The notes under the pieces: model-generated
The model's input: only the letters and a program-made list of their open reading frames with translations
Databases searched by the model: none
What the model was told of the DNA's origin: nothing
Shown here: positions 2 to 58,575 of the stretch, one piece after another
Layout: the number at the start of each line of letters is the position of its first letter
Position numbering within the stretch: position 1 is the first letter of the stretch
Source: an uncultured Chloroflexia bacterium
Lineage (GTDB): Bacteria > Chloroflexota > Limnocylindria > Limnocylindrales > CSP1-4
Reading direction: 5' to 3'
Assembly: GCA_963712745.1 (NCBI GenBank)
Contig: CAVQJC010000017.1
Location: 224,001 to 288,000 of the forward strand
Length of the DNA: 64,000 nucleotides
Made by a program: the position numbers and the translations under genes

Positions 2-1363
2 GCCGGCGCGCGCGGCCGCGAGGCCAAGGCAGCCATATTCGCCGACCTGGTGCGCCGGGCCGAGCCGCTGAGCGCTCGCTATGTCACGGCCATCCTGGGT
101 GGGGAGCTTCGCATCGGCCTGCGCGAGGGGCATCTGGAGAAGGGCATCGCTCTCGCCTTCGGACGAGACCTGTCGGCGGTGCAGTGGGCGGGCATGCTCA
201 CTGGAGACATCGGCCGGACCGCCCGCCTGGCCCGCGAGGATGCCCTCGACAGCGCCCGCCTGGCGCTCTTCCACCCGCTCAAGTCGATGCTGGCCTCGGC
301 GGTAGCGGACGAGGCCGAGGCAATGACGCGCCTCTCGCCGCCGGCATGGGTAGAGGACAAGTACGACGGTATCCGCGCGCAGCTGCACGTGGAGGGCTCC
401 GAGGTCCGATTGTTCAGCCGCGACCTCAACGACATCAGCGGCCAGTTCCCCGAGGTCAACGAGGCGGCGGCCGGGGCCGGCTGGGCTGGCATCCTCGATG
501 GTGAGATCCTGGGCTGGAAGGACGGGGCAGTGCTGCCGTTCCTGGCGCTGCAGACGCGGCTCGGGCGCAAGAAACCATCGCCGGAGGTGCTCGCCGAAGT
601 GCCGGTCATCTACGTCGCCTTCGACGTGCTGGCGCTGGGCGAGGGAGGGGCTTCGCCACAGCCGGTCCTGCGCCGGCCGCTGCGGGAGCGGCGTGCACTC
701 CTCGAAGGGCTCGGGCTGGCGACGACCCCTGGCTTCGGCCTGGCCTCGCTCGTCGATGCCTCGGATGAACGGGAGCTCGAGCGCATATTCGCCCAAGCCC
801 AGGAGCGCGGCAACGAGGGCCTGATGCTCAAGGACCCCGAGTCCAGCTATGCCCCCGGCCGCCGGGGCTACGCCTGGCTCAAGCTCAAGAAGGCGCTCAC
901 CACGCTCGACTGTGTGGTAGTGGGGGTGGAGGTCGGGCACGGCCGGCGGCACGGCTTGCTGTCCGACTACACCTTCGCCGTGATCGATGACCGCCCCGAC
1001 GCGGCCGAGAGCTCCCTTGTCACCATCGGCAAGGCCTACAGCGGGCTGACCGACGCCGAGATCGCGCAGATGACGCGCTGGTTCGAGGCCCACACCATCG
1101 AAAGGCACGGGCGCTACCGCCGCGTGGAGCCGACGGTGGTCGTGGAGATCGCCTTCGACGTGATCCACGCCTCCAACCGGCACAAGTCCGGGTACGCGCT
1201 GCGGTTCCCGCGCATCGTCCGCATCCGCGAGGACAAGGGACCGGCCGAGGTCGATGCGCTGAGCACCGTGGCCGCCCTCCACGAGCGGTTGCAGCTGGCC
1301 GGTCGCTACGGCGTGCTCACCGCCGGCGCTCCCGATTCGGACGACGAAAGTGGCTCGGGCTGA
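2..1363 (+). CDS. lig: ATP-dependent DNA ligase (LigB-like), 5' end runs off window
   Basis: Motifs EDKYDGIR (I), LDGE (III), AFDVL (IIIa), EGLMLK (IV), WLKLK (V), LRFPRIVRIREDK (VI); frame open from position 2. Confidence 0.95.
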   Translation, partial: AGARGREAKAAIFADLVRRAEPLSARYVTAILGGELRIGLREGHLEKGIALAFGRDLSAVQWAGMLTGDIGRTARLAREDALDSARLALFHPLKSMLASAVADEAEAMTRLSPPAWVEDKYDGIRAQLHVEGSEVRLFSRDLNDISGQFPEVNEAAAGAGWAGILDGEILGWKDGAVLPFLALQTRLGRKKPSPEVLAEVPVIYVAFDVLALGEGGASPQPVLRRPLRERRALLEGLGLATTPGFGLASLVDASDERELERIFAQAQERGNEGLMLKDPESSYAPGRRGYAWLKLKKALTTLDCVVVGVEVGHGRRHGLLSDYTFAVIDDRPDAAESSLVTIGKAYSGLTDAEIAQMTRWFEAHTIERHGRYRRVEPTVVVEIAFDVIHASNRHKSGYALRFPRIVRIREDKGPAEVDALSTVAALHERLQLAGRYGVLTAGAPDSDDESGSG

Positions 1364-1400
1364 GCGATGATGTGTCGGTGATCCCACTGCGAGAGAGGCT

Positions 1401-2558
1401 GTGAACGAGCCTCCCAGCCGCTTCGACCGTGTCAGCGGACTGCGGGACGTCCTGACCGCCACCGGCGCCGGCATCTACCTGGCTACCCACCAGGCCGGTC
1501 CTATCCCGGTCGAGACGCAGGCCGCTGTCCACGAGTCCGACGAGATGGAGCTGCGCGTCGGCCGAGCTGGCCGCGACCGAGCCGACGACCTCGACCAGCG
1601 CGAACGAGAGGCCAGGGCAGTGGTCGCGGCCGTGCTCAAGGCTGTGCCGGAGCGGATCGTGCTGACCCACGGTGCGGCCGATGCGGCGCGGATGATCGCC
1701 CTGGAGGTTCTCGAAGGCGGCGAGGCGCCGCAGCGTGTGCTGTTCCTGCCGGGAGTGGACAGGGCCATGGCCGCTGCCGTTCGCGACGTGGCCGAAGTCG
1801 CCGGGGCGGAGGTGGAGGTGGCCTCGGATGTGCCGCGCATCATCGCGGCCGACGTGGCGCTGGTGGTGCTGGCCCATGTCGATGCCGACGGCCGACTGAC
1901 CGATCCGGCGCCGGTGGCCGAGGCCGCGCACAAGGCCGGCGCCCGCGTGCTCCTCGATGTCGGCCTCAGCGCCGGCGCGTGGCCTACCGACGTGGCCGTG
2001 ATGGGGGCCGATTTCGTGGTCGCGGAGGTGCACCGCTGGCTGCTCGGTCCCGAAGCGGTCGCGTGCGCCTGGATCACCCCCGATCTCGATCCCGAACTGC
2101 CGGAGTGGCTGCGCCAGGCCTCCGCCGGGTTCGGCCGGGGTGCGCTGCTGAGCCTGGCACGGAGCGTCGGCTGGCTGCTGATGTACGTGGAGTTGCCCTG
2201 GGCCATCGATCGCACCGTCGCACTCGCCGACGGCCTGTACGCGGATCTCGCGGCCATCGACGGGGTCGAGCTGCTGGCTGACCCGGGGGCACACGGGCCG
2301 GTGGCCACCTTCCGCATCAGCGGCTGGGACGCCGAGGGCGCCGTCGACGAGCTCTCACGTAGCATCTTCGCCATCGTCGAGGCCGATGCTGAGGCGGATG
2401 TCATCCGCGCCAGCGTGGGTGCCTGGAACCGGGAGAAGGAGCTGGTGCGCTTCACCGAGCGAGTCGCCGAGCTGGCCGCCCATACGCCCGAGTCGCTGCC
2501 CAGGCGGCCGTCACTGACGATCCTCAGCGGGCCGCTCGATCCCGAGGAGGATGCGTGA
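1401..2558 (+). CDS. Class V aminotransferase / cysteine desulfurase-fold protein with degenerate PLP site
   Basis: IYLATHQAGP N-terminus, ARxxVA, VLLDVGLSAG, DFVVAEVHRWLLGP (canonical SxHKW has K->R), IRASVGAWN. Confidence 0.8.
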   Translation: MNEPPSRFDRVSGLRDVLTATGAGIYLATHQAGPIPVETQAAVHESDEMELRVGRAGRDRADDLDQREREARAVVAAVLKAVPERIVLTHGAADAARMIALEVLEGGEAPQRVLFLPGVDRAMAAAVRDVAEVAGAEVEVASDVPRIIAADVALVVLAHVDADGRLTDPAPVAEAAHKAGARVLLDVGLSAGAWPTDVAVMGADFVVAEVHRWLLGPEAVACAWITPDLDPELPEWLRQASAGFGRGALLSLARSVGWLLMYVELPWAIDRTVALADGLYADLAAIDGVELLADPGAHGPVATFRISGWDAEGAVDELSRSIFAIVEADAEADVIRASVGAWNREKELVRFTERVAELAAHTPESLPRRPSLTILSGPLDPEEDA

Positions 2559-2974
2559 CCGACGAGGACGGCTCCGCCCCGGAGTCCACTCCCCAGCGCG
2601 AGGTCCGTCACCGCCCGGAGTGGGAGATCCGCTGGCGCCAGGCGCGCAATGCCCCGCCCCCGGTGGTGCGTGCGGTGCTGGCCAACGTGGCAGTGGCTAC
2701 CGTCGGTGGCATCGTCCTGCTGCTGACCGACTGGCTGGCCAGCCAGGGGGTGCTGCCGGCCTTCCTGCTCGACCTGGGGCCACTCATCTACGTGGCCGTG
2801 GTCATCGTCAGCGGAAGCGTCTTCACCTACCTCTGGGTCGAGCTGCCCACCGGCGTCCCCGGCGAGAAGCGCAGCTCCCCCTGGGCTGCCGTGCTCGGCT
2901 TCTTCGCCAGCATCCCCATCGTCTACCTCGCGCTGGTGATCATCTTCGAGGTCCTGCGCCCGCTCTTGCCGTAG
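2555..2974 (+). CDS. Hypothetical membrane protein (about 3 TM)
   Basis: Three hydrophobic segments; GTGA overlap with upstream stop; GAGGAGG RBS. Confidence 0.75.
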   Translation: MTDEDGSAPESTPQREVRHRPEWEIRWRQARNAPPPVVRAVLANVAVATVGGIVLLLTDWLASQGVLPAFLLDLGPLIYVAVVIVSGSVFTYLWVELPTGVPGEKRSSPWAAVLGFFASIPIVYLALVIIFEVLRPLLP

Positions 2975-3017
2975 TGCCTGCTAGCATCGACGTGTCGCGC
3001 GACGGCGCCACTCCGAT

Positions 3018-3093
3018 GGGGGAGTAGCTCAACGGTTAGAGCGGTCGGCTTATATCCGACTGGTTCCAGGTTCGAATCCAGGCTCCCCTACCA
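3018..3093 (+). tRNA. tRNA-Ile, anticodon UAU
   Basis: 76-nt cloverleaf: acceptor GGGGGAG/CTCCCCT, D stem GCTC/GAGC, anticodon stem GTCGG/CCGAC with loop CT-TAT-AT (TAT at 3051-3053), GGTTCGAATCC T-arm, discriminator A and encoded CCA. Confidence 0.93.
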
Positions 3094-3200
3094 ACCCCCA
3101 GCACTCTGGGCGCCTGGCGCAGGACTCGCGTCACGGACACACGAAGGCCGCGCGGCCGACCCTTTCGAGTCTGCACGCGCGGCCCGTGCTGCAAGCGCCA

Positions 3201-3224
3201 GTCAGCTACCGATCGGTAGCTGAC
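3201..3224. terminator. Perfect 24-bp palindrome, probable bidirectional terminator
   Basis: GTCAGCTACCGATCGGTAGCTGAC between the convergent tRNA and sugar-binding-protein gene. Confidence 0.6.
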
Positions 3225-3246
3225 AGCACCCGCTTGAGGGTCCGAG

Positions 3247-4251
3247 TTATGCGGCGCAGTTCGGGCTGCTGCCGGGCTCGTCGACCGGAGCGAACTGGTA
3301 GTAGTCGCACGCGTTGTCCGGGGTGAGCAGCACCATGTCGATGTACTGCTTCTCGGGGAGGTCGGTGCTGCCGCGTCTTGATGTAGGCGTCCGCCTGCTC
3401 GGCCGACTGGAGATCGCCATCTCGGCGACCGGCTGCAGCGAGGTGGCCTTCAGCTCACCGGCGTTGATGGACATGATGGCGTCATCGCTGCCGTCGAAGC
3501 CGACCACGATGATGTCATCCATGCCGGCAGCCATGACCGCGGCCTGGGCGCCGAGTGCCATGGTGTCGTTGCCGGCGATGATGCCCTTGACGTCGGGGTA
3601 CTGCTGGAGCAGCTGCTCGGTGACCTGGAAGCCCTCGTCCTGGCTCCAGTTGGCGGTCTGCTGGGCGACCATCTCCAGGCTCGGGGATCTCGTCGAGGAC
3701 GTCGTGGTAGCCCTGGCTGCGGACGCTGCGCGTTGGTGTCCGTGTCGCGACCGGTCAGCTCGATGTAGGTGCCCTCTTCGCCCATCAGCTCGGCCGCAGT
3801 ACTCGGCGAGGATGGTGGCGCCCTGGTAGTTGTTGGAGACGATCTGGGCCACGGCCACGCCGTCCTGCGTGATCTCGCGGTCGACGAGGAAGCTGCGGAC
3901 GCCCGCGTCGGCGGCCAAGCTGGACCGCAGCCACGCTGGCGTCAGCGCCTGCGTTGTCGAGGATGATGGCGAGGGCGCCCTGCGCGACGCAGGTCTCGAA
4001 GAGCTCGGCCTGCAGCGACGGCGTCGTCGTTGTGGACGAGGCGGTCTGGTGCGTGTAGCCCAGTTCCTCGGCCTTGTCCGCAGCGATCTGCTGCATGGCG
4101 CCGAAGAAGGGGTTCTCCACGCCCGGCACGATGACGCAGATCAGGCCGCCCTCGGCCATCTCGTCGTCCTGCCCGAGGCGACCATGCCGGTCGAGGCCGT
4201 GAGCGCCAGGGCAGCGCTGAGCGCCAGCGCGGTGTGCGTCTTGTTGAACAT
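3247..4251 (-). CDS. Monosaccharide ABC substrate-binding protein, D-apiose-binding type (RbsB fold); several frameshifts
   Basis: Joined ORF pieces give a signal peptide (MFNKTHTALAL), ENPFF, AIILDNAGADAS, DREI, QIVSNNYQGA, ANWSQ, GNDTMA, VVGFDGS; GGAGG RBS before ATG 4251. Confidence 0.85.
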
Positions 4252-4268
4252 CCGTTCCTCCATTCTTC

Positions 4269-5456
4269 TCACTTCGTGGGCCGGCCCATCCGGCCCACTC
4301 CGTTCACTCCTCGGGTGTGTTCAGCGTCGTCCCTGTCGCTCCTCCTTTCAGGTGCTGCCGCTGTCGGCGTGTCGGAGTCGTCTGCGTGGATGACCTGGGC
4401 GGCCTGCTGCTGCAGGGCCAGCCGCCGCTCGGCGCGCTGCTGGAGCTGGTCGATGATCAGGGCCAGCACGATGACGGTGCCGGTGATGATCAGCTCCGGA
4501 ACGACGGAGATGCCCATCAGCGTCAGGCCGTTGTTGAGCGTGCCGATGACGAACGCGCCGATGATCGTGCCGAGGATGGTTCCGCGGCCGCCGGCGAGCG
4601 AGGTGCCGCCAAGCACGACCGCGGCGATGGCGTAGAGCTCGTAGTACAGGCCGATGGCGGGGTGTGCCGCCACGAGCTGGCTGGCGATGATGAGGCCGAC
4701 CGTGGCGGCGCAGAAGGCACTGATCATGTAGACGATCATCTTGGTGCGGTTGACGCGCACGCCCGAGAGTTCCGCGGAGCGCTCGTTGCCACCGACCGCG
4801 TAGACGGCCCGCCCGAACGGGCGTCCGCGTGGTCACGAACCAGGCCACCACCGCGAAGAGCACGAGGATGACGATGGCCCAGGGGACGACCCCGAAGGCC
4901 TCGCCGGTGCCCAGCTCGCGGAAACCGGTGTTGCCCAGCTCCTCCTTGCCGACGAGGTTGGGATAGGTCCCACCGTTGTTGATGATCCCGGCCAGGCCAC
5001 GGGCGACCATGAGCATGCCCAACGTGGCGATGAACGGGGCCACGTTGAAGCGGGTGATGATGAAGCCGCTGACGGCGCCCATGAAGGTGCCCGCCGCCAA
5101 GCGAGATGACCAGCACCATCCAGGTGTGCGGGAAGATGACCCAGTCGGCGACCTGTCAGGCCTTCGTGGATGAGCAGGCCGGCGACGATGCCGGTGAAAC
5201 CGACGATCGAGCCGACCGAGAGGTCGATGCCGCCGGTCAGGATGACGAAGGTCATGCCGATGGCGAGGATGCCGTTGAGCGCCGTCTGCTTGATGAGGAT
5301 CTCGATGTTGGCGCCAGTGAGGAAGGCACTCTCCACCCAGGCGAAGAACAGCACCAGCACGATGAGCGCGATGAAGGCGCGACCGCGGAGCAGGAACTGG
5401 GCGACCTCGGTCCGGGTCATGCCGCGCGTCTTGTCGGCCTGCGCATTCGCCGTCAC
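4269..5456 (-). CDS. Sugar ABC permease (RbsC family); frameshifted
   Basis: GMTFVILTGGIDLSVGS, PFIATLG, YELYAIAAVVLGGTSLAGGRG spread over three frames. Confidence 0.88.
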
Positions 5457-5491
5457 TGGATCACCTCGACGGTCCCACTTTCATTGCCTAC

Positions 5492-7059
5492 TCAGCTGTC
5501 GACCGCCGGTCCGTGACCGATGGCCGACGCGTCGACCAGCTCCTTCTCGGTCGCCCGGTCGCCCTCGAACTCGGCCACGACCTCGCCCTTGCTGAGCACG
5601 AGGATGCGGTCGGACATGGCCATGACCTCCTTGAGCTCCGAGGAGACGAAGACGATGCCGAAGCCCTCGCTGGCGAGGCGGCTCATGATCTGGAAGATCT
5701 CGGACTTGGCGCCCACGTCGATGCCACGCGTGGGCTCGTCGAGCAGCAGCACCCTGGGCTCGGTCATCAGGCCCTTGGCCACGACGACCTTCTGCTGGTT
5801 GCCGCCGCTGAGCGAGTCGATGCTGTTGCGCGGGATCGGCCACGCGGACCGAGAGGTCGTCGATCATCTGGTCGACCGCGGCACGTTCCTTGCGCAGCGG
5901 ACAGGTAGAACCGGTTGAGGTAGCGCTTCAGCGAGGCCAGGACCATGTTGTGGGCCACCGACAGCGTCGGCACCAGGCCCACCGTCTTGCGGTCCTCGGG
6001 CACGAGCACGACGCCGGCGTCGATGCGGTCGGCCACCGATGCATGCGGCGAGTCCCTGCCCTCGAGGCAGGACCTCGCCGCTGGCCTCGGGTCGGATGCC
6101 GGCGAGCACCTCCATGAGCTCGGTGCGACCGGCGCCCATGAGCCCGTACAGGCCGAGGATCTCGCCGGCGTGGACCTCGAGCGAGACGTGGTCGAGCAGG
6201 TAGCCGCCGCCGAGCCGCGGCAGCGTCACGTCCTTGACCTCGAGCAGCGTCTCGCCGACGTCGTGCTCGGTGCGGCGAGAACAGCGAGGCCGGCGAGCGG
6301 CCGACCATCTGCTCGATGATCCAGGCCACGTCCACGTCGGCGGTCTCCGCGTGGGCCACGATCGCTGCCGTCGCGCAGGACCGTGATGCGGTCGCCGACC
6401 TGCAGCAGCTCCTCGAGCTTGTGGCTGATGTAGACGATGGCCACGCCACGCGCCTTGAGGTCGGCGATGATGCGGAAGAGGCCCTCGACCTCGGCCTGGC
6501 TAAGCGCGGAGGTGGGCTCATCCATGATCAGCACGCGCACGTCGTGCGTGAGCGCCTTGGCGATCTCGACGATCTGCTGCTGGCCGATGCGCAGGTTGCC
6601 GACCAGCTCATCGGGGTCGATGTCCTGGCCCAGCCGCTCGAAGAGCTCGAGCGCCAGCTTCCGCTGCGCTGCGCGGTCGATGGCCGGGCCGCGGGTGATC
6701 TCCTGGGCCAGGAAGAGGTTGTCCAGCACCGTCAGGTTGGTGCACAGGTTGAGCTCCTGGAAGATGATGCCGACGCCGTGCTGGGCCGCGTCGGTGACGC
6801 GTGGGCAGGACCACCGGCTCGCCGTCGATCGAGGATGCGACCGTCGGTCGGCTGCTCGACGCCCGCGAGGACCTTCATCAGCGTCGACTTGCCGGCGCCG
6901 TTCTCGCCCACGAGCACATTGACCTCGGCCTTCGAAGACGTCGAAGGTGACGTCGTCGAGCGCGGTCGTGCCCGGGAAGACCTTGGTGATGTGCTCGGCG
7001 CGCATGGGTACGCGCAGCGACATCGGCTGCGGTGTGGCAACCGGCGCAGCCATCGTCAT
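5492..7059 (-). CDS. Sugar ABC ATPase (RbsA-type, two NBDs); frameshifted
   Basis: [46 protein letters not shown] in alternating frames. Confidence 0.9.
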
Positions 7060-8757: not shown

Positions 8758-9705
8758 TCAGTTTGCGACGACCTCCCGTGCGCCGGCAGCGATGCCCTCC
8801 GGGTCCAAGCCGTAGCGGTCCAGGAGGAACGTCGGCGAGCCCGTGGGACAGAAGCCGGGGAAGCCCAGCAGGCGCATGGGCACAGGTCGTTCGCTGACCA
8901 CGACCTCGGCCACGGCGCCACCGAGCCCACCGCGAACGATGGCCTCCTCGGCCGTGACGATGCCCTTGGTCTCGCTCGCCGCGGCGACGATGGCCGCGCG
9001 GTCGATGGGGGAGACGGTGGCCATGTTGATGACGCGTGCCTCGATGCCACTGGCCGCGAGGATGTCGGCCGCGGCCAGGGCGCGCGTGACCAGGACACCG
9101 TTGCTGATGATGGTGACGTCGTCGCCATCGCGTAACTGGATGGCCTTGCCGATCTCGAACTGGTAGCCGTCGGGATGGACGACCGGCACGCCGATGCGAC
9201 TGGTGCGGATGAAGACCGGGCCCTCGTACTCGTACGCGGCACGGACGGCCTGCGCGGTCTCGACCGGGTCGGCTGGCACGATGACGACGAGCCGGTCGAT
9301 GGCCCGCGTCCAGGCGATGTCCTCGATGGAGTGGTGGGTGGGCCCGAGCTCACCATAGGCCACGCCGCTGCTGACACCCACGAGCTTGACATTGGCACCG
9401 CTGTAGGCCGCGTCGACCTTGATCTGCTCGAGCGCGCGTGCGGTCAGGAATGGGCTGGCGCCCGCAACGAACGGGATCTTGCCGCCGTTGGCCAGGCCTG
9501 CTCCGATGCCCACCATGTCCTGTTCGGCGATACCGACATTGACGACACGCTCAGGCATGACCGCCGCGAGTTTGGAGATCTTGGTCGAACCGACAGAGTC
9601 GTTGACCACGGCCAGGATCCGCTGGTCCGCCCCCGCGAGCTCGATGAGCGTGTCGACGAAGGCGTCACGACAGTCGTAGAGCTGGACTGGAGCTTCGGCA
9701 GTCAC
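8758..9705 (-). CDS. aptB: Transketolase C-terminal subunit (apulose-4-phosphate transketolase subunit B-like)
   Basis: DCRDAF, NVGIAEQDM, RALEQIK, ELGPTHHS, EEA..RGGLG; GTG start overlapping upstream stop; aptB call depends on context. Confidence 0.8.
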   Translation of the reverse strand: MTAEAPVQLYDCRDAFVDTLIELAGADQRILAVVNDSVGSTKISKLAAVMPERVVNVGIAEQDMVGIGAGLANGGKIPFVAGASPFLTARALEQIKVDAAYSGANVKLVGVSSGVAYGELGPTHHSIEDIAWTRAIDRLVVIVPADPVETAQAVRAAYEYEGPVFIRTSRIGVPVVHPDGYQFEIGKAIQLRDGDDVTIISNGVLVTRALAAADILAASGIEARVINMATVSPIDRAAIVAAASETKGIVTAEEAIVRGGLGGAVAEVVVSERPVPMRLLGFPGFCPTGSPTFLLDRYGLDPEGIAAGAREVVAN

Positions 9706-10534
9706 GCCCGACTCCCTTCCAGCTCGGCCACAGCCTGGGCGTACTCCTCGTCGGTGGGCACGCGGTGGTGCCACTCCTTGCGATCCTCGATGAAGGAGAC
9801 GCCTTTGCCCTTGGTGGTGTTGGCGATGAGGCAGTTGGGCTGGCCGGGTGCGAAGGGGAGGGCGGCGAAGGCCTCGAGCAGGGCGGCGTGATCGTGGCCG
9901 TCGACCTCGCGGACGGCCCAGCCGAAGGCCTCGAACTTGTCGGGCAGCGGGTCGAGGCCCATGGTCAGCTCGGTGCGGTCACCCTGCTGTAGGCGATTGC
10001 GGTCGACGATGCAGACGAGCTTGTCCAGCCCAAAGTGGCCGGCCGACATGGCCGCTTCCCACATCGACCCTTCCTGCAGCTCGCCGTCGCCGGTGAGCAC
10101 GAACGTGCGCCGCGAGGCGTCGTCCATCTGGCCCGAGAGTGCGATGCCGACGGCCACCGGGAAGCCGTGGCCCAGCGGCCCGGTGTTGGTCTCGACGCCG
10201 GGCACCTTGTTGCGGTCGGGGTGACCGTTGAGGCGAGAGAGCGGCGCGAGGAAGGTGTCCAGCTCGGCGACGTCGAAGTAGCCGGCCATGGCCAGCGTGG
10301 TGTACAGCGCCGCGGCCGAGTGACCCTTGCTGAGCACGAAGCGGTCGCGCTCGGGATCGTCTGGGGTTCTGCGGGTCGTAGCGGAGCACGCCGCCGAAGA
10401 AGAGCGTGACCAGGATGTCCGATGGCCGAGAACTCGCCGCCGATGTGACCGAGCCCCGCGGAGTGGACCATCTTGATGTCGCGCAGGCGCACGTCGATGG
10501 CGCGCTGCCGGAGTGTCGCCGTGATGTCAGCCAT
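9702..10534 (-). CDS. aptA: Transketolase N-terminal subunit (apulose-4-phosphate transketolase subunit A-like); frameshifted near 10360-10420
   Basis: GHIGGEFS, LSKGHSA, LNGHP, NTGPLGHG, ThDP motif GDGELQEGS, TTKGKG, WHH. Confidence 0.8.
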
Positions 10535-35900: not shown

Positions 35901-36133
35901 GGGAACGCGACGTGCTCAACATCCTGGCCGAGGGTCGCACCGACCGTGATATCGCCGGTCGCCTCTTCATCAGCGAGCGCACGGTCCATGTCCACGTGCG
36001 CCGCATCCTGGCCAAGCTGGGCGTCTCCAGCCGGACCGAGGCCGCCGGGGTGGCCATCCGCCAGGGCCTGGTGCCGGCCACGTCGACGACGCCGGAACGA
36101 AAGCAGGCCGATGACGTAGCATCCGGCGCATGA
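32957..36133 (+). CDS. LuxR-family large ATP-binding (STAND/AAA16 + TPR + HTH) transcriptional regulator
   Basis: FLGRERELAQL, GPAGIGCT P-loop, LEDVHFAD, GNPL, C-terminal LSPRERDVL..LAEG.T...IA..LFISERTV.VHV..IL.KLG. Confidence 0.92.
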   Translation: MAFLGRERELAQLAEAVRRVAEGRLGRVVLTGPAGIGCTRLLDELSTRVSSVPGVLACRGRAYEPGAGMPYQAVGDALASAFRKVPDERVPEIVSRVGADLAALVPGLAERLDDLAVDRTPPQLEAPELLGRRVIESILGTLERLSAGGVVLLMLEDVHFADPATRKLIEALQDVGRSLPVCLVITYQAEEVHRRHPMQALADRLAEDEEVVRLRLGSLSAPEVERLVVDALGEKPPQNALTAVIEGARGNPLIALELARSARSLEGVRLSDAFDQLYGARVEALSREAGRVVRVLAAARSPLLRSTVMSIRPQDGRLTIQGLEEAIAGGFVIEAGERLVISHELCAEAVEALELTPERQGIHAAMAERLVEEPALAAWHWARAARPQEAQAAHVEAARMASRLDPSDTVLLHYEAALELPSLEPVGPSEAATLLAGAARASAAAGAYRSAVALMRRAIDSRAAREASRHRGERDPATRIALGEMYEDLGRYQWNAGDLDGAIASIERALGIMPQAPSCSRAWVLASLAQHLMLDGRFDQSLSAAEEALGMAAAAETGGEDTLRVRAHALCTKGVDIAYRGDAELGLALLEEAATLSRRTGRLDDLMRVAANRTYLLDLDLRREDAVAVVQEFLQDAAAGGLEATYGAFLRGNAADILFHLGRWQEAERLCRSDLKWQTNWQTSGHDITWLSLAVLGLLLTESRADQEATSLVGRALLELHAVAPGQGMNFVMRSAVSLALWNGRVEEALSIAEREWPRAIESDELGIVAIAASTAMEAAAAAAEHGRADSNAGLIARARALTEGVLPAAESYVAGSSIGPELGGRREAELMLQTARAHALRVRGRPDPTAWDMLAQAWERNTVPYRQAKARWWQALAILGEAPEEDRESARVEASAPLSEAYRIARGLPALPLLREIVDLAARARVSLPIAKEVDRDLVAVGPGRPPDAGVGNPDIARAIEERVIATLRKGPADTYGLSPRERDVLNILAEGRTDRDIAGRLFISERTVHVHVRRILAKLGVSSRTEAAGVAIRQGLVPATSTTPERKQADDVASGA

Positions 36134-37281
36134 AACTCACGTTTGCACGGGTCATCGTGGCCCTCTTCGCGCTCACCCTTGTCGTGGTCGGCTGCGCCAG
36201 CGAAAGCGGCAGCGCCTGGACGTTCGCCCCCTCGACCGCGTCGACTGGCGAGGCTGAAGCCGCTCCGGTGGGATCGGACACACCGTCCGCCGAGCCTGAG
36301 GCCGCGACCGCTGCGCCGGCCGAGTCTGAGGCCGCGACCGCTGCGCCGGCCGAGAGTGCCGTGCCGGCCGAGAGTGCCGTGCCGGCCGAGAGTGCCGCGC
36401 CGGCCGAGAGTGCCGCGCCGGCCGAGAGTGCCGTGCCGGCCGAGAGTGCCGTGCCGGCCGAGGCTCCCTCGTCACCGGCGCCGGCCGAGCCTGCGGAGGC
36501 GCAGGAGCCTGCGACTGCCGAGGCGCGCGTCATCGACCTCCAGGCCGACAGCGCGCTGCGTTTCACCGATGCTGCCGGCCAGCCCGTGCCGGACATCGCG
36601 CTCACGCCCGGTGAGACCGTCGTCTTCCGCATCGACAACACGGCCGGCTTTGCCCACAACTTCTGGATCGGCACGGACGCTGAGCTATCGGTCCCGAACG
36701 GCAGCACGGACGTCGGCCTGCCTGACTGGGCGACCGGCGTGCAGGAGCTCGAGTGGGTCGTGCCCGAGGACCTCACCGGTCTGAAGTTCGCCTGCACCGT
36801 GCCCGGCCATTACTACACCATGCAGGGCACGTTCTCGCCGGCCGATGGTGCATCGGAGCCGGCCGAGCCCGAGCAGACGGCCGAGCCCGAGCAGCACGGC
36901 CGAGCCCGAGCAGACGGCCGCGACTGCGGCACCGGCCGACTCCGCTGCCAGCGGCGAGCCGCGGGTGATCGAGCTCGAGGCCGACGCCGCCATCCGCTTC
37001 CTGCAGGGCGGCGAACAGGTCGTGAACATCGACGTGACCCCCGGCGAGACCGTCCTCTTCCGCATCGACAACACCGCCGGTTTCGCGCACAACTTCTACA
37101 TCGGCCCGGACTCTGAGCTATCGGTCCCGAGCAACAGCACCGAGGTCGGCCTTCCCGACTGGGAGACAGGCGTGCAGGAGCTCGAGTGGGTCGTGCCGGC
37201 TGATCCCACCGGCGTGCGTTTCGCCTGCACCGTCCCCGGCCACTACTACACCATGCAGGGCGACTTCACCGTCAGTCCGTA
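36130..37281 (+). CDS. Lipoprotein with two type-1 copper (cupredoxin, auracyanin/azurin-like) domains; frameshift near 36895
   Basis: Lipobox VVGC; twice FAHNF...FACTVPGHYYTMQG (His/Cys/His/Met); extra C in GAGCAGCACGGC relative to neighbouring repeat GAGCAGACGGC. Confidence 0.85.
36296..36462 (+). repeat. In-frame coding tandem repeats (2 x 30 bp; 6 x 18 bp encoding PAESAV/A) forming a linker
   Basis: CCGGCCGAGAGTGCCG(T/C)G repeated from 36346. Confidence 0.9.
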
Positions 37282-37303
37282 GGCGGCGCGAGGCCAGCCC
37301 ATC

Positions 37304-38721: not shown

Positions 38722-40806
<2,085 letters not shown>

Positions 40807-40970
40807 CAGCCCGAATGGTAGGGGAGGCGAGTGACAACACTGCCGCAGGGCTGCGAGCCATGGCGCTCCGTGGCCCGGTCTGCCGCACTCGAATCGCGCG
40901 CCTGGCCGGGCGGCTCATGGCCTATGGGCGACTCATGGCCGCCGGGCGACCCATGGCCTATGGGCGACTC

Positions 40971-41152
40971 ATGGCCTATGCCGCGTGCGCCTATGGCCGC
41001 CGGGCGACCCATGGCCTATGCCGCGTGCGCCTATGGCCGCCGGGCGACCCATGGCCTATGCCGCGTGCGCCTATGGCCGCCGGGCGACCCATGGCCTATG
41101 CCGCGTGCGCCTATGGCCGCCGGGCGACCCATGGCCTATGCCGCGTGCGCCT
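40971..41152. repeat. 40-bp tandem array (4.5 identical copies), with sub-unit mosaics from about 40905
   Basis: ATGGCCTATGCCGCGTGCGCCTATGGCCGCCGGGCGACCC at 40971, 41011, 41051, 41091, partial at 41131. Confidence 0.95.
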
Positions 41153-41371
41153 GTACGGACCGATCAACGGCGACCGTTGGTGTTCCAAGTCAACTCCGAT
41201 GGCGGGATGCTCCCAGGATTGGGTGGTCAGTCCCGGGAGCACTCGATGCGCCAGGGTAAGCCGTGATCGGCCCTCCCCGCCGTCTTCACTTGGTTGACGT
41301 AGTCGCCTGCGGCATAGCGAGCATGGTGCCACGGCCGGCACGATGGCTGCGGCGACCATCGATGGTGCGGT

Positions 41372-41486
41372 GCGGCTGCCGGGTCCCGTGTGGAGCGGCT
41401 GCCGGGTCCCGTGTGGAGCGGCTACCTGGTCCCGTGTGGTGCGGCTGCCGGGTCCCGTGTGGAGCGGCTGCCGGGTCCCGTGTGGA
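41372..41486. repeat. 23-bp tandem array (5 copies)
   Basis: GCGGCTGCCGGGTCCCGTGTGGA at 41372, 41395, 41418 (variant), 41441, 41464. Confidence 0.95.
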
Positions 41487-41490
41487 GGAG

Positions 41491-42141
41491 TTAGAGGAGG
41501 ATGATGCCGTTCCCCTTCGGGATGTCGCCCTGGCGCAGAGAGTGCAGGATGTCGCGCGTGTCGAGCGGGAATGTGCTCGCTAACGATGCGCGGTACTCGC
41601 GCAGGATGGCCCTGTTGTGCTTGGTCGCCGCCACCACGAGGATCACTCGCGAGACGCCGCTGTCGCGCCACTTGAGCTCTGTCCTGCGCTGCAACGCTTG
41701 GATATCCCTGAGCTTCGTCTCGGCGTCAACACCGATCGACTCGCTACCCTCCAGCAGCACATCCCAAGCGCGGCGGTCGTCGAGCCCTCCGACCGGGACC
41801 TCCGATCTCCACCGCAGGCGCGGGCTAACCCTCGCCCGGAACCTCTGCAGCAGAGCCAGCTGCGCTGCGTCCCGGACCGGCAGTCCATCCGGATAGGCCT
41901 TCAGCGACAGGCGCAGACCGAGGGCCGCGCAATGGCGGGCGAGTTCGTCGAGTCGAGGTGAGACGCGCCTTCCGCGCTCAGTGCGGCTGATTCGAGTTTG
42001 CGTCAGGCCTGCCACGGTCGCAACGTGCTGCTGACTGAGACCGGAACCGTGACGAGCCTCCCGAAGCTCCGTGCCCAGTCTCGCGAGCAGCCGATCCGCC
42101 TGCCGAGTGCCCTTGTCTCGCGCCCGTTCCCTCGAGGTCAT
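41491..42141 (-). CDS. XRE-family HTH fused to a putative PD-(D/E)xK/Vsr-like nuclease-fold domain
   Basis: LREARHGSGLSQQHVA..AGLTQTRISRTERG HTH; WRSEVP..D.RAWD...IGVDAETK..D acidic cluster in the C-domain. Confidence 0.75.
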   Translation of the reverse strand: MTSRERARDKGTRQADRLLARLGTELREARHGSGLSQQHVATVAGLTQTRISRTERGRRVSPRLDELARHCAALGLRLSLKAYPDGLPVRDAAQLALLQRFRARVSPRLRWRSEVPVGGLDDRRAWDVLLEGSESIGVDAETKLRDIQALQRRTELKWRDSGVSRVILVVAATKHNRAILREYRASLASTFPLDTRDILHSLRQGDIPKGNGIILL

Positions 42142-42199
42142 GTCACAAGCCTGACCGCCGCCTCTTCACCGGGGCTTGCCTGGCGTGTACCGTCGGGCT

Positions 42200-55506: not shown

Positions 55507-56055
55507 ATGCAGCGAGAGCTTGTCGAGCAGGCGATCAAGGGGGACCACGACGCGTTCAGTGAGCTCGTCCGGCTGTCGAGCCGGAAGCTGTACGCCGTGG
55601 CCACGTTGATCCTGCGTGACAAGACGCGAGCAGAGGACGCCACGCAGGAGGCACTGGTGGCCGCCTGGCGCGACCTCTCGGGGTTGCGCGACCCGGACCG
55701 TTTCGAGGCCTGGCTCCACCGCGTGCTCGTGCGCGAGTGCTACCGCATGGCCAAGCGCGAGCGCCGGCGCATCGAGGTCGAGGGCCAGGTCCGCGCCCTG
55801 ACCGAGACCGACGACCCCAGCCGCCAGCAGGCTGCTCGCGACGAGCTCGAGCGTGGGTTCGCCCGCCTGCCGGTCGACCAGCGGACCGTGCTCGTACTGC
55901 ACCACTACGTGGGCTACTCCTTTCCAGAGATCGCTGAGACGCTGGGTATCCCGGTGGGTACCGCCAAGTCGCGCGTGCACCGGGCCACCAGTGCCATGCG
56001 TGCCGCGCTCACCGCCGATGCCCGCACTCCGACCCTGGGAGGGTCTTCGGCATGA
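55507..56055 (+). CDS. ECF sigma-70 factor
   Basis: AEDATQEA, LRDPDRFEAWL, LP.DQRTVLVL, EIAETLGIPVGTAKSR. Confidence 0.95.
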   Translation: MQRELVEQAIKGDHDAFSELVRLSSRKLYAVATLILRDKTRAEDATQEALVAAWRDLSGLRDPDRFEAWLHRVLVRECYRMAKRERRRIEVEGQVRALTETDDPSRQQAARDELERGFARLPVDQRTVLVLHHYVGYSFPEIAETLGIPVGTAKSRVHRATSAMRAALTADARTPTLGGSSA

Positions 56056-57314
56056 ATGACCGCGGCAAGGCTCCCTGGGACGAGCCTGTGAACGAGCTCG
56101 ACACCGATCAGCTGCTCACCGAGTGGTTCGAGGAAGAGGCGCCCCTGCGTGAGCCGGCCCTGCTCGCGCCCAACGTCATCGCTCGCACCGCGCTCACGCG
56201 TCGACGCTCCCGGTGGTTGGTACGCGATTGGTGGCGCGATCTCCTTCGCGGCGTTCGCTGGCCGTCGCTGGTGCCCGCGCTGGCCGCGGGCGTGGTCGCG
56301 ATCGTGGCTCTTGTCTTCGCGGTCGTGACGTGGCTGCCCGAGCGCGCCTCGCAGCCCGTCCTCCCCGACTACGTGCCGGCCGATGCGCTCATCGTGTCGA
56401 GCAACGACGCATCGAAGAAGTCGACGATCGCGGAGGCTATCGCCCAGGCGCAGCCCGGCGACACGGTGGCCATCCTGCCGGGCGAGTACGAGGAGAACCT
56501 CCTCGTCGACAAGGACATCACGCTTCTCGGCGCTGGGGCGGCGGAGGAGATCGTGGTGCGTCCGGCCCAGCCGGACGAGCCCGTCATCCGTATCGACGGC
56601 GGGGATGCCACGCTCACCGGCTTCACTGTCACGGGGCCGGGCGGTGGCGTTGAGGTCGTGGCCAGCCAGGCGGTCATCGACCAGATGGTCTTCCGGGATG
56701 CCGGTCAGCGGTCGTGGAGGTTCACCGGCTCGGGTTGGGAGGAGTCCGACAGTGCCCGACCGTCGATCCTGGTGGAGCTCTTCGCCGAGGCCACCATCAC
56801 CAACAACCTCCTCGACGGCGGGGGCGACATCGAGGTGCAGCGTTCGTCGACAGCGCTGATCGAGCAGAACGAACTCAGCAACGGCCCGTCCATCGCCCTC
56901 ATGGACGCGACCGGCGAGACCGTGGTGCGCGGGAACACGATCACCGCATCTGGCGTCTTCTCGATCGAGTCCGCGTCACCGACGGACCTGCTCATCGAGG
57001 GCAACGTCATCCGTCAGCGCGATCCGGGCATCGCGATCTTGGCCTTCGACCTGGACGGCACCATCCGCGGCAACACCATCGAGGGCGCCAACGTGGGCAT
57101 CCAGATCGTGGATCGCACCACCGCGACGATCGTTGACAACACCATCGACGCGGTGGGTGTGGCCTTCGAGATCCACGAGGGCGTGGAGCCCACGATCAGC
57201 GGCAACGATCTCTGCGGGCAGAACGCGATCATCGCGCTCGTCGGGAGTGCCACCGCGCCGGACGTCTCGGACAACACGCTCTGCAAGGGCGTGCCGGTGG
57301 TCTACGAGCGGTAG
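56052..57314 (+). CDS. Putative anti-sigma factor: short cytoplasmic domain, one TM, extracellular beta-helix
   Basis: ATGA-coupled to sigma; TM ALAAGVVAIVALVFAVV; TIAEAI..A.PGDTV.I.PGEYEENL; PbH1-type repeats. Confidence 0.8.
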   Translation: MNDRGKAPWDEPVNELDTDQLLTEWFEEEAPLREPALLAPNVIARTALTRRRSRWLVRDWWRDLLRGVRWPSLVPALAAGVVAIVALVFAVVTWLPERASQPVLPDYVPADALIVSSNDASKKSTIAEAIAQAQPGDTVAILPGEYEENLLVDKDITLLGAGAAEEIVVRPAQPDEPVIRIDGGDATLTGFTVTGPGGGVEVVASQAVIDQMVFRDAGQRSWRFTGSGWEESDSARPSILVELFAEATITNNLLDGGGDIEVQRSSTALIEQNELSNGPSIALMDATGETVVRGNTITASGVFSIESASPTDLLIEGNVIRQRDPGIAILAFDLDGTIRGNTIEGANVGIQIVDRTTATIVDNTIDAVGVAFEIHEGVEPTISGNDLCGQNAIIALVGSATAPDVSDNTLCKGVPVVYER

Positions 57315-57399: not shown

Positions 57400-57655
57400 C
57401 GGGCGCCTGGCTGTGCGTCCGCTGCACGAGTCCGACGATGCGGGCGCCTGGCTGTGCGTCCGCTGCACGAGTCCGACGATGCGGGCGCCTGGCTGTGCGT
57501 CCGCTGCACGAGTCCGACGATGCGGGCGCCTGGCTGTGCATCCGCTGCACGAGTCCGACGAAGCGGGCGCCTGGCTGTGCATCCGCTGCACGAGTCCGAC
57601 GAAGCGGGCGCCTGGCTGTGCATCCGCTGCACGAGTCCGACGAAGCGGGCGCCTG
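57400..57655. repeat. 41-bp tandem array (6 copies plus partial; 3 of type A then 3 of type B)
   Basis: CGGGCGCCTGGCTGTGC(G/A)TCCGCTGCACGAGTCCGACGA(T/A)G at 57400, 57441, 57482, 57523, 57564, 57605. Confidence 0.95.
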
Positions 57656-57793
57656 CGCAAGTCCATCGGGCCGCGTTGGCACCCTTCCTTTGCGCCCGGT
57701 GCCCGGCGGTGACGTTCGTTGTCACCCCGTGAGAGGCTTCGGCAGATACCGGAACCGGCATACGCCGAAGTGGCGCACCGAGGTCGAACTGGT

Positions 57794-57927
57794 GCACCCG
57801 GTGCAGACACCCGGCACCCGGTGCAGACACCCGGTGGCCGATGGCAGACACCCGGTGGCCGATGGCAGACACCCGGTGGCCGATGGCAGACACCCGGTGG
57901 CCGATGGCAGACACCCACTGGCCGATC
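57794..57927. repeat. 21-bp tandem array (4 copies plus 1 variant), preceded by a 20-bp duplication
   Basis: GCAGACACCCGGTGGCCGATG at 57823, 57844, 57865, 57886, variant at 57907. Confidence 0.95.
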
Positions 57928-58005
57928 GATGGAACCTTTCGCACCGCGCGGCGACGCAATAGGGTATGAGCGCGGCCAAGTGTGTCGCGCCGAAGCGGTG
58001 GCCAC

Positions 58006-58575
58006 ATGACACGAGAGCTCGTCCGGCGAGCGATCGAGGGCGATCACGACGCGTTTTCCAGCCTGGTGGACGCGTCGATCGATCGCCTGTATGCCGTGGC
58101 CACACTCATCCTGCGTGACTCGGACCGTGCCCAGGACGCGGTGCAGGAGGCGCTCATGTCCGCCTGGAAGGACGTGCGCGCGCTCCGCGATCCCGACGCG
58201 TGGGATGCCTGGCTCCATCGCATCACGGTGTGGGCCTGCTACAAGGCAGCCAAGAAGGAGCGTCGACGCAAGACGGTCGAGCTGAAGGTCGTTCCCGACC
58301 CCGAGCGCACGACCGCTCCTGACTCCGCGGCTACGCTGGCCAACCGCGACCTGGTCGAGCGGCAGTTGAACGACCTGCCCATCGAGCATCGCGCGGTCAT
58401 CGTCCTGCGCTTCTACCTCGACCTGCCTCTCGACGAGGTGGGCGACATCCTCGACATCCCTGTCGGGACCGTGAAGTCCCGCTTGCATCGGGCACTGGCC
58501 TCACTCCGCGAGTCGATGGCCGAGCCCGCTGCCGGCATTCCCCCGGTCGGCCTCCTGAAGGACGGCACAGCATGA
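58006..58575 (+). CDS. ECF sigma-70 factor (paralog of 55507)
   Basis: AQDAVQEA, LRDPDAWDAWL, LPIEHRAVIVLR, LDIPVGTVKSRLHRA. Confidence 0.95.
   Translation: MTRELVRRAIEGDHDAFSSLVDASIDRLYAVATLILRDSDRAQDAVQEALMSAWKDVRALRDPDAWDAWLHRITVWACYKAAKKERRRKTVELKVVPDPERTTAPDSAATLANRDLVERQLNDLPIEHRAVIVLRFYLDLPLDEVGDILDIPVGTVKSRLHRALASLRESMAEPAAGIPPVGLLKDGTA

Follow-up and report, generated by a model that had tools for sequence, protein, structure and literature searches.

A palindromic element beside an HTH gene with a predicted nuclease-fold domain in uncultured Limnocylindrales, and the tandem arrays around it

A palindromic element of ~190 nt was found downstream of a gene for a 216-aa protein in a 64,000-nt stretch of DNA (the window) from an uncultured Chloroflexia bacterium (CSP1-4, Limnocylindrales; assembly GCA_963712745.1, contig CAVQJC010000017.1, positions 224,001-288,000). 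The element is absent from Rfam, is conserved with covarying pairs, and is tied to one branch (group A) of the family to which the protein belongs. The protein carries an XRE-type helix-turn-helix (HTH) domain fused to a domain predicted to have the fold of the PD-(D/E)xK nucleases, and the element is flanked by tandem arrays. The reading that we prefer, for which we see an even chance, is that the gene and its cognate palindrome form one module and that the arrays are secondary products of slippage.

Along the minus strand come, in turn, the 216-aa open reading frame (ORF), a 23-bp array, a unique core, a 40-bp array, an 18/36-bp array, ~100 bp, and a gene for a thioredoxin-domain protein (Table 1). 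Tandem Repeats Finder (TRF) and a repeat finder agreed on the layout of gene, 23-bp array, ~220-bp core and 40-bp array that a first-pass annotation of this DNA had described. Its list of arrays was right for the 23-bp and 40-bp arrays and incomplete in that the further 18/36-bp array (40905-40980) had not been separated out. The window DNA is high-GC, and the closest relatives of its proteins come from metagenome-assembled genomes (MAGs) titled Chloroflexota, Chloroflexia or Candidatus Limnocylindrales. The locus set consisted of the window and 34 related loci (labelled L001-L034), with 35 family genes in all.

A covarying palindrome in the downstream spacer

The nested pairings that had been proposed for the core were recovered: the arms of a hairpin (41208-41221/41228-41241) are 86% complementary, and the minimum free energy fold gives the nested outer pairs as well. 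The stability of this fold relative to shuffled sequences was modest (z = -2.2 on the plus strand and -2.6 on the minus strand; -2.1 and -2.2 in an independent run), and 7 of 14 cores (13 loci and the window) folded at z ≤ -2 on at least one strand. Many spacers of the group hold long inverted repeats with arms of 24-38 nt, 108-147 nt apart. Direct alignment and BLAST comparison of the spacers across orthologs aligned only the promoter box of the thioredoxin-domain gene, and the core appeared unconserved on plain alignment. This view was overturned by the inverted-repeat and motif analysis, which showed that what is conserved is structure plus short boxes. The cores of L008 and L011 are identical at 172 of 195 positions (88%), compared to 70% in CoxL and 69% in CoxM at third codon positions. 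A small ORF within the core was considered and rejected, as the mismatches between L008 and L011 lack 3-nt periodicity (7, 8 and 9 by position) and the ORFs are not conserved.

Analysis of short motifs showed that GACT[GC]A[CA] occurs 29 times in the 12.3 kb of group A 3' spacers, compared to 31 times in the remaining 154.6 kb of these loci, which is approximately the random rate. The central box, AGTS-N6/7-GACT, occurs 11 times in the same spacers and twice in the 154.6 kb elsewhere, and control patterns with other spacings or another order of the boxes occurred 0-1 times. The distance from the outer GACT to its inverted partner AGTC falls into two classes: 142-144 nt in L004, L008, L011, L012, L013 and L017, and 161-163 nt in L003, L005, L006 and L014.

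Covariation was assessed in an alignment of 16 copies made with MAFFT, which was not fitted to the structure; the stem was taken from RNAalifold. The closing stem has 15 outer pairs, with 84% of cells paired and 11 of the 15 pairs altered on both sides. When the closing stem and the central hairpin were taken together, 76.8% of cells were paired compared to 64.0% in shuffled alignments, a level that none of 500 shuffles reached. The covariation score of the same pairs was 0.378, compared to 0.170 +/- 0.020 for the shuffles (again, none of 500 reached it) and 0.07-0.13 for slid controls. In L034 and L019 the box itself has changed with compensation, GACT to GCCT on one side being matched by AGTC to AGGC on the other.

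Two models were then compared with the loci: R1, a covariance model that included the window, and R2, built from 15 sequences with the window excluded. R1 scored the window copy at 61.1 bits. It also found four copies on which it had not been trained, each full length and directly 3' of the gene: L034 (45 bits on the gene strand and 30.7 on the opposite strand), L019 (38.9 and no match), L001 (37.5 and 18.2) and L010 (31.6 and 31.5). When R2 was run over the window and 19 unused loci (249 kb), its sole match in the window was 41128-41324 on the minus strand, at full length (30.2 bits, E = 5.8e-4); weaker matches were found in L007 (26.4 bits) and L009 (24.5 bits), and in groups B and C, which occupy other neighborhoods, nothing was better than E = 0.18. 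Across the window and the loci scanned, matches to R1 and R2 lie solely beside a family gene. The contig of L034 lacks the genes that neighbor the element in the window, yet the element is kept, which suggests that it follows the HTH gene and not the thioredoxin-domain gene. Together with the shuffle controls, this second context agrees with the earlier suggestion that the core is a structured cis element. In Rfam 15, no model reached its gathering score in the region, only chance microRNA and long non-coding RNA models appeared at E ≤ 10, and none matched in 13 orthologous loci.

Covarying pairs in the closing stem and central hairpin also fit an alternative in which the element is a structured RNA (a 3' untranslated region (UTR) element, an elaborate terminator, or a small RNA co-directional with the HTH gene) and the arrays are incidental. 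The encoded protein might bind or cleave such an RNA, as a form of autoregulation, or have it as a partner. We consider this alternative possible though improbable. In array-less loci the element begins ~14-35 nt past the stop codon, with the GACT box at +34 in L012 and L013, leaving no room for a separate promoter, so that the element would be co-transcribed with the gene. This position, and the higher gene-strand scores in three of the four untrained copies, fit a 3'-UTR RNA, and the element has accompanied the gene into the other context of L034. However, the two strands of L010 score alike, and the outer helix has 16 G.U and 17 A.C cells on the gene strand, where selection at the RNA level should favor G.U. 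The z-scores of folding are equal on both strands, no Rfam family was matched, and scans for promoter and terminator consensus sequences found nothing, including no terminator-like U-tract. The equal numbers of G.U and A.C cells and the equal folding of both strands make us lean toward a palindrome that acts as DNA.

An HTH protein with a predicted nuclease-fold domain

Residues 21-76 of the protein form an XRE HTH (Pfam HTH_31, E = 1.9e-12), and two Pfam models passed their cut-offs over residues 21-78: HTH_31 with 47.7 bits (cut-off 27) and HTH_3 with 28.5 bits (cut-off 23). The nearest solved relatives in sequence and fold are the HigA/HipB antitoxins and the controller proteins C.BclI and C.AhdI. 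The latter two are the best structural matches, with 37-38% identity over ~60 residues.

The C-terminal domain (C-domain; residues ~88-216, ~130 aa) gave no match in sequence searches of Pfam, NCBIfam, PADLOC and PDB. Folded alone with 23 homologs in AlphaFold2, it gave a model with a predicted local distance difference test (pLDDT) score of 93.1 and a predicted template modeling score of 0.86. The model has the alpha-beta-beta-beta-alpha-beta topology (H-E-E-E-H-E) of the PD-(D/E)xK core. Its best Foldseek matches in PDB were all PD-(D/E)xK proteins, at weak scores (E = 0.03-0.5; template modeling score 0.40-0.47), so the nuclease-like character earlier suggested for this domain was upheld at the level of the predicted fold. 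The fold neighbors were McrC, YaeQ, OkrAI/BamHI, Bax1, AF1548, the R2 endonuclease domain, PspGI, Can2, Hjc, RecU, NucS and FokI. An acidic cluster, E..D..D-x-E-x-K, had been pointed out in the first-pass annotation. Its acidic residues E114, D127, D139 and E141, and also K157, are invariant in all 24 aligned homologs. D127 lies in predicted strand 2 (E125-131), D139-A-E141 in strand 3 (E135-141) and K157 in the next helix. T142 is near-invariant (at least 90%), and position 143, the canonical Lys, is K in the window protein and R in most homologs. We take the acidic site to resemble the BamHI-type variant, in which an acid replaces the Lys.

A homodimer was predicted with a score of 0.66, compared to 0.00 for the best control, through an interface made of the N-terminal helix and residues 61-87. 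The runs shared at least 81% of contacts, and the pLDDT of the partner was at least 82. The mark set for this tool is passed by 20 of 30 homo-pairs of solved structure and by 1 of 23 single chains, and the result here may reflect mere likeness to solved XRE dimers. We are evenly divided on whether the protein is a dimer whose HTH, of the XRE type and like that of C proteins, is joined to a restriction-endonuclease-fold domain with its acidic metal-binding cluster retained; as such, it would be a candidate nuclease.

A profile search with the C-domain returned 1120 clusters (50% identity, E ≤ 1e-3), mostly of ~216 aa and with the same architecture, and the neighbors in the ESM Atlas were Chloroflexota hypothetical proteins. 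Judged from these sequences, the family is vertically inherited, with several paralogs per genome, and is confined to Chloroflexota (Limnocylindrales-type MAGs). Eighteen of the 35 loci (group A, defined with tblastn) share an arrangement of CoxL-CoxS-CoxM, a divergent MobA-like gene, the HTH gene, a spacer of 300-1600 bp, the thioredoxin-domain gene, and HAD. Group B (8 loci) has SDR, HTH and a convergent rpoD-dnaG; group C (L015, L016 and L032) has two MBL hydrolases, HTH, an OmpR-type two-component system and GGT; and the two loci of group D have opp-type ABC ATPases. Singleton paralogs adjoin UvrC/SecD or a PIN gene plus a two-component system. The L032 gene looks frameshifted after about residue 45. 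In a comparison of L008 with L011, the third codon positions of the HTH gene (5001-5648) were 87% identical, compared to 69-70% in CoxL and CoxM (1090-4890), which could reflect a recombination tract over gene and element or constraint on synonymous sites.

The first-pass annotation had also raised the possibility of a selfish module. This was not borne out: there is conserved synteny in the 18 group A loci, and the paralogs are fixed. No transposase, integrase, methyltransferase or separate endonuclease gene was found in the neighborhoods of the examined loci, which for the non-syntenic ones were covered with Pfam on 64 neighbor ORFs of 16 loci. tblastn found no homologs in 72,556 plasmids or in 50,697 phage records. 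On this sequence evidence we judge the gene module not to be selfish, because its homologs sit in four fixed chromosomal neighborhoods, without transposase and without plasmid or phage relatives. As had been noted earlier, the site lacks spacers, transposase and terminal inverted repeats. Its arrays run head-to-tail without the spacers of a CRISPR, and no cas-type genes were found in the window ORFs, in the tblastn synteny scan or in the 64 neighbor ORFs. The location is fixed, no dispersed copies typical of a mobile element were seen, and the core has no second copy in the 64-kb window.

Tandem arrays and their possible origin

Arrays (TRF period ≥10, score ≥50) were found within 300 nt 3' of the stop codon in 20 of the 35 family genes, compared to 36 of 280 other gene ends supplied by a crude caller based on GC content at third codon positions that covered 79% of the DNA (odds ratio 9, Fisher p = 2e-8). 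At a TRF score of at least 80, the counts were 17 of 35 and 22 of 280. Arrays were present in 13 of the 18 group A loci and in 7 of the 17 loci elsewhere. This stop-codon-based test replaced a cruder, gap-based measure of enrichment, and it confirms among homologs the association with flanking arrays that the first-pass annotation had proposed.

The arrays are lineage-specific and non-coding. Their periods range from 17 to 62 bp with no bias toward multiples of 3 (the 23 bp of the proximal array in the window is not one), and neither units nor periods are related between orthologs. Turnover was evident even between close relatives: L011 has a single diverged copy where L008, whose protein is 95% identical, has a 19-bp array of 5 units. 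The distal arrays of the same two loci (25 bp x7 and 19 bp x3) stem from one ancestral sequence. The 23-bp and 40-bp arrays of the window fold no better than shuffled sequences (z between -1.6 and +0.7; for the 23-bp array, +0.66 and -0.34), and arrays as structured RNA were rejected at z of about 0.

The 40-bp array of the window is derived from the palindrome. The 18-nt stem arm at 41300-41317 is 82-83% complementary to a segment in every 40-bp unit, the nearest copy being 148 nt away, and the covariance-model alignments agree with the pairing of 41300-41317 and the first unit (41136-41152). Since the stem-arm sequence recurs in each unit, the distal array is a tandem amplification of the 3' stem arm. 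Each 40-bp unit also holds a degenerate box, GACCCATGG, in which GACC or GCCT stands in place of GACT. This unit is itself a higher-order form derived from the 18-bp one, giving a hierarchy of 18, 36 and 40 bp.

These findings suggest the following sequence of events. The protein, as a dimer, would bind the GACT/AGTC boxes on an extruded or single-stranded hairpin or on duplex DNA. Binding would control expression of its own gene or of the downstream operon; alternatively, the protein would process the hairpin. The C-box of the C.PvuII group is given as GACT-N3-AGTC-N4-GACT-N3-AGTC (PMC2175313). As GACT and AGTC are tetranucleotides read by the HTH of controller proteins, the adjacent protein would be the natural candidate to bind the element. 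A long hairpin-forming palindrome in an unconstrained spacer would promote replication slippage and unequal exchange at its flanks. Palindrome-stimulated slippage is well established. Local sequence, in the window including the 3' stem arm and its box, would in this way be amplified into lineage-specific minisatellites with fast turnover.

Arrays as binding sites were also considered, both in the form that the first-pass annotation had offered as one option and as functional iterons that titrate or cluster the HTH protein at its gene, like parC or plasmid iterons. The first form, taken as conserved sites, was set aside because array units differ between orthologs and few carry conserved boxes, and the second we consider quite unlikely. 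In its favor is group C, where copies of the palindrome ACCC-N7-GGGTGAAGCG recur to either side of the gene. The 395 kb contain 30 ACCC-N7-GGGT sites, of which 27 belong to the three group C loci and 28 are no more than 700 nt from an HTH gene. In addition, upstream or flanking arrays in L006, L015 and L016 are duplications of the -30 box, a motif upstream of the family genes that is described below (position weight matrix (PWM) p ≤ 0.03), with L002 borderline (p = 0.065, 0.075). The GACT-box PWM was matched by the 18-bp array of the window (7.4 bits, p = 0.03 versus shuffles) and by a 49-bp array of L004 (p = 0.004). However, most 3' arrays hold neither motif. The general idea that arrays are made of -30 or GACT boxes was rejected, as the GACT box reached p ≤ 0.05 in only 9 of 135 arrays, about the chance level. 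The 23-mer and 40-mer of the window were not significant (p = 0.15-0.99; for the 23-bp array, p = 0.15 for the -30 box and p = 0.40 for the GACT box), and the box in the 40-bp units is degenerate. Furthermore, orthologs with near-identical recognition helices have array units that bear no relation to each other.

A second alternative, nick-and-repair, which the first-pass annotation had also named, is that the PD-(D/E)xK domain, anchored by the HTH as a structure-specific or Type IIS-like nuclease, cuts or nicks near the palindrome, and that repeated repair makes the flanking duplications. The invariant acidic cluster would suit such an enzyme, as would fold neighbors that include structure-specific or distance-cutting nucleases (Hjc, RecU, NucS, Bax1, FokI and McrC). 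The presence of arrays to either side of the element (in the window, L003, L004, L006 and L008) and array enrichment in the 7 of 17 non-orthologous contexts are also consistent with this idea. We nevertheless regard it as very unlikely. Arrays are present beside some members of groups B and C, which lack the palindrome, and similar arrays occur where the family gene is absent (window 57400-57926). A nuclease that repeatedly breaks its own chromosomal locus should also be costly, yet synteny is stable. A related proposal, that the covarying hairpin, as an RNA partner or as extruded DNA, is the specific substrate or cofactor of the adjacent nuclease, whose activity would drive the recurrent creation of tandem arrays, is in our opinion a long shot.

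Several observations weigh against the preferred reading of a gene-palindrome module with arrays formed by slippage. The pattern of the central box is at chance level in the window (2 and 3 matches, compared to 3.3 expected per spacing), and a near-perfect palindrome, AGTCACGCCCGACT, at 9700-9713, distant from the family genes, fits AGTC-N6-GACT on both strands, so the box pattern alone is not diagnostic. The order and spacing of the boxes, AGTC-N6/7-GACT, differ from the GACT-N3-AGTC of the C-box. The compensated changes in L034 and L019 indicate that pairing matters no less than the letters GACT, which weakens the step in which the box is read out. On the side of the protein, the fold matches of the C-domain are weak, and it has no sequence match in Pfam or PDB. 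The control genes of the enrichment test came from a crude caller, and because the group A loci represent one orthologous position, the 35 counts are not independent. Arrays are also found in the CoxM-MobA spacers of L003, L005 and L007 and at 57400-57926 in the window, and their presence in spacers without the palindrome, as at the 36 of 280 other gene ends, indicates that the palindrome is not required. Finally, arrays are missing from the 300 nt past the stop codon in 5 of the 18 group A loci (L007, L012, L013, L017 and L028), and R1 or R2 matches every one of these, L007 weakly.

Other signals of the region and comparison with known systems

Table 1. Coordinates of features in the 64,000-nt window
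Feature	Position	Strand	Details
HTH gene with predicted PD-(D/E)xK-fold domain, 216 aa	41491-42141	-	ORF; TAA stop at 41491-41493
Proximal array, 23 bp x 5.3	41365-41487		92% matches; TRF score 211 and repeat finder; begins 4 nt past stop
Unique core, 212 bp	41153-41364		Between 23-bp and 40-bp arrays
Distal array, 40 bp x 4.8	40962-41152		99% matches; TRF score 375
18/36-bp array, x 4.1	40905-40980		TRF and repeat finder; unit holds GACT-type box GCGACTCATGG
Thioredoxin-domain (DUF255-like) gene	38722-40806	-	Starts ~100 bp beyond 18/36-bp array
Conserved palindrome element, ~190 nt	41128-41325	-	Core plus first 40-bp unit; closing stem, nested pairs, central hairpin, box
Closing-stem 5' arm (gene orientation), GACT box	41300-41317		Pairs with 41136-41152
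Central box AGTG-N7-GACT	41229-41243	-	Overlaps hairpin 41208-41241; pattern search
-30 box GGTGAAG (consensus sGTGAAGcG)	42164-42170	-	29-31 nt before start codon; promoter or operator element
Second -30 box motif AGTGAAGACG	41281-41290	-	PWM 11.8 bits; inside core, in arm of nested pairing
-10-like box CCTACCAT	40815-40822	-	8 nt before ATG of thioredoxin-domain gene
Second array-core-array site	57400-57926		Arrays 57400-57655 (41 bp x6.2) and 57803-57926 (21 bp x6.0); core 57656-57802, 147 bp

The -30 box was found at its fixed distance from the ATG in nearly all members and in all paralog groups, and PWM matches occurred at 6.9 per kb in the 120 nt upstream, compared to 0.5-0.6 per kb elsewhere. 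The AGTGAAGACG copy within the core is the only match of at least 8 bits in the window spacer; another (8.3 bits) lies just beyond, in the start of the thioredoxin-domain gene. Within 1000 nt past the stop codon, 4 of the 17 other group A loci had a match of at least 8 bits, none above 8.2. The repeats of group C have periods of 39-62 bp and lie at 4590-4860 and 5660-6270 in L015, 4630-4845 and 5615-6010 in L016, and 4777-4893 in L032, where three upstream copies of the palindrome are kept without an array. Recognition-helix residues vary between groups in step with the motifs, a weak correlation. A single "GGTGA half-site" model for the -30 box, the GACT box and the group C motif was rejected, the spacings (11, 1 and 7-9 bp) being inconsistent, and a count of enriched exact 8-mers was discarded because coding sequence of rpoD in the paralog loci made up most of what it caught.

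The only part of the spacer that can be aligned across orthologs (including L001, L003, L004, L009, L011, L012, L014, L017 and L028) is CCTACCAT-N8-ATG. No Shine-Dalgarno sequence accompanies it, and it resembles a -10 box from which a leaderless transcript would start. A similar CAnnCT is present 6-7 nt before the ATG of the HTH genes.

The second array-core-array site of the window lies between a beta-helix gene (56052-57314, +) and a gene for an extracytoplasmic function (ECF) sigma factor (57982-58575, +). It has no similarity to the site at 40905-41487, no family gene beside it and no match to R1 or R2, and its core is not clearly structured (z = -0.9 and -1.9). Coding repeats at 36289-36462 and 36860-36920 have 18- and 30-bp units, multiples of three, and encode linkers rich in Pro, Ala, Glu and Ser; the protein concerned (ORFs 36130-37116 and 36845-37282) has two repeated domains at its C terminus. 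ARAGORN identified a tRNA-Ile with anticodon TAT at 3018-3093 (+); this anticodon is an uncommon bacterial way to read AUA.

The C-domain family and the ~190-nt element are missing from the family libraries searched, and a literature search found nothing on either of them, nothing pairing Limnocylindr* with tandem repeats and nothing specific on intergenic minisatellites here. Each part taken singly is familiar, since HTH regulators, PD-(D/E)xK folds, palindromic cis elements and minisatellites are all known; it is their combination and the link to arrays that are new. What emerges is a large, Chloroflexota-restricted family that joins a controller-protein-like HTH to an unannotated domain with the predicted restriction-endonuclease fold, and a measurable link of the module to the origin of tandem arrays. 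Should the protein act on the hairpin, the locus would offer an uncomplicated natural setting in which to study the making of bacterial minisatellites by a palindrome and its binding protein, and possibly a new sequence- or structure-specific nuclease. Were the hairpin truly the substrate or cofactor of the nuclease, minisatellites would arise here at a chromosomal hotspot programmed by a protein. Otherwise, the regulator, the -30 box, the downstream element and the leaderless-type promoter signature provide useful annotation for the soil Limnocylindria, which are abundant but uncultured.

The closest parallels to the HTH are the controller proteins of restriction-modification systems (C.BclI, C.AhdI, C.PvuII and C.Esp1396I). 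The family shares with them an XRE HTH that matches C.BclI and C.AhdI best and a predicted dimer of HTH domains, and its cis boxes, like C-boxes, use GACT/AGTC tetranucleotides in a palindromic arrangement (PMC2175313). Controller proteins are small stand-alone HTH proteins, whereas here a protein of 216 aa has its HTH fused to a nuclease-fold domain, and the gene has no methyltransferase or separate endonuclease gene nearby. C-boxes lie upstream of the gene, whereas the family boxes lie 3' of it, inside the 190-nt palindrome and in the order AGTC-N6/7-GACT; the motif that does lie upstream, sGTGAAGcG at -30, is unlike the operators of C proteins.

With the PD-(D/E)xK nucleases (BamHI/OkrAI; Hjc, RecU, NucS, Bax1 and McrC) the C-domain model shares the core fold, with a candidate site made of an Asp in strand 2 and a D-x-E in strand 3. 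It differs from them in having no sequence match in Pfam, NCBIfam or PDB, and in Foldseek E values that reach only 0.03-0.5.

The arrays resemble the mycobacterial interspersed repetitive units and variable-number tandem repeats (MIRU/VNTR), which are intergenic tandem repeats with units of tens of bp whose copy number and sequence differ between relatives. Unlike these, the arrays described here cluster by one gene family, and they flank, and partly derive from, a conserved palindrome.

Repetitive extragenic palindromic (REP) sequences and their associated tyrosine transposases (RAYT) are a system in which a domesticated nuclease gene is flanked by cognate palindromic repeats that form tandem clusters, the bacterial interspersed mosaic elements (BIME). 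The present protein is an HTH and PD-(D/E)xK fusion and not an HUH Y1 transposase, and its palindrome is not dispersed: GACT boxes elsewhere in the loci occur at about the random rate, and in the window and loci scanned R1 and R2 matches lie only by the gene. What the two have in common is a single-copy chromosomal gene, for a protein with a DNA-cleaving fold, that stands beside a putative cognate palindromic element.

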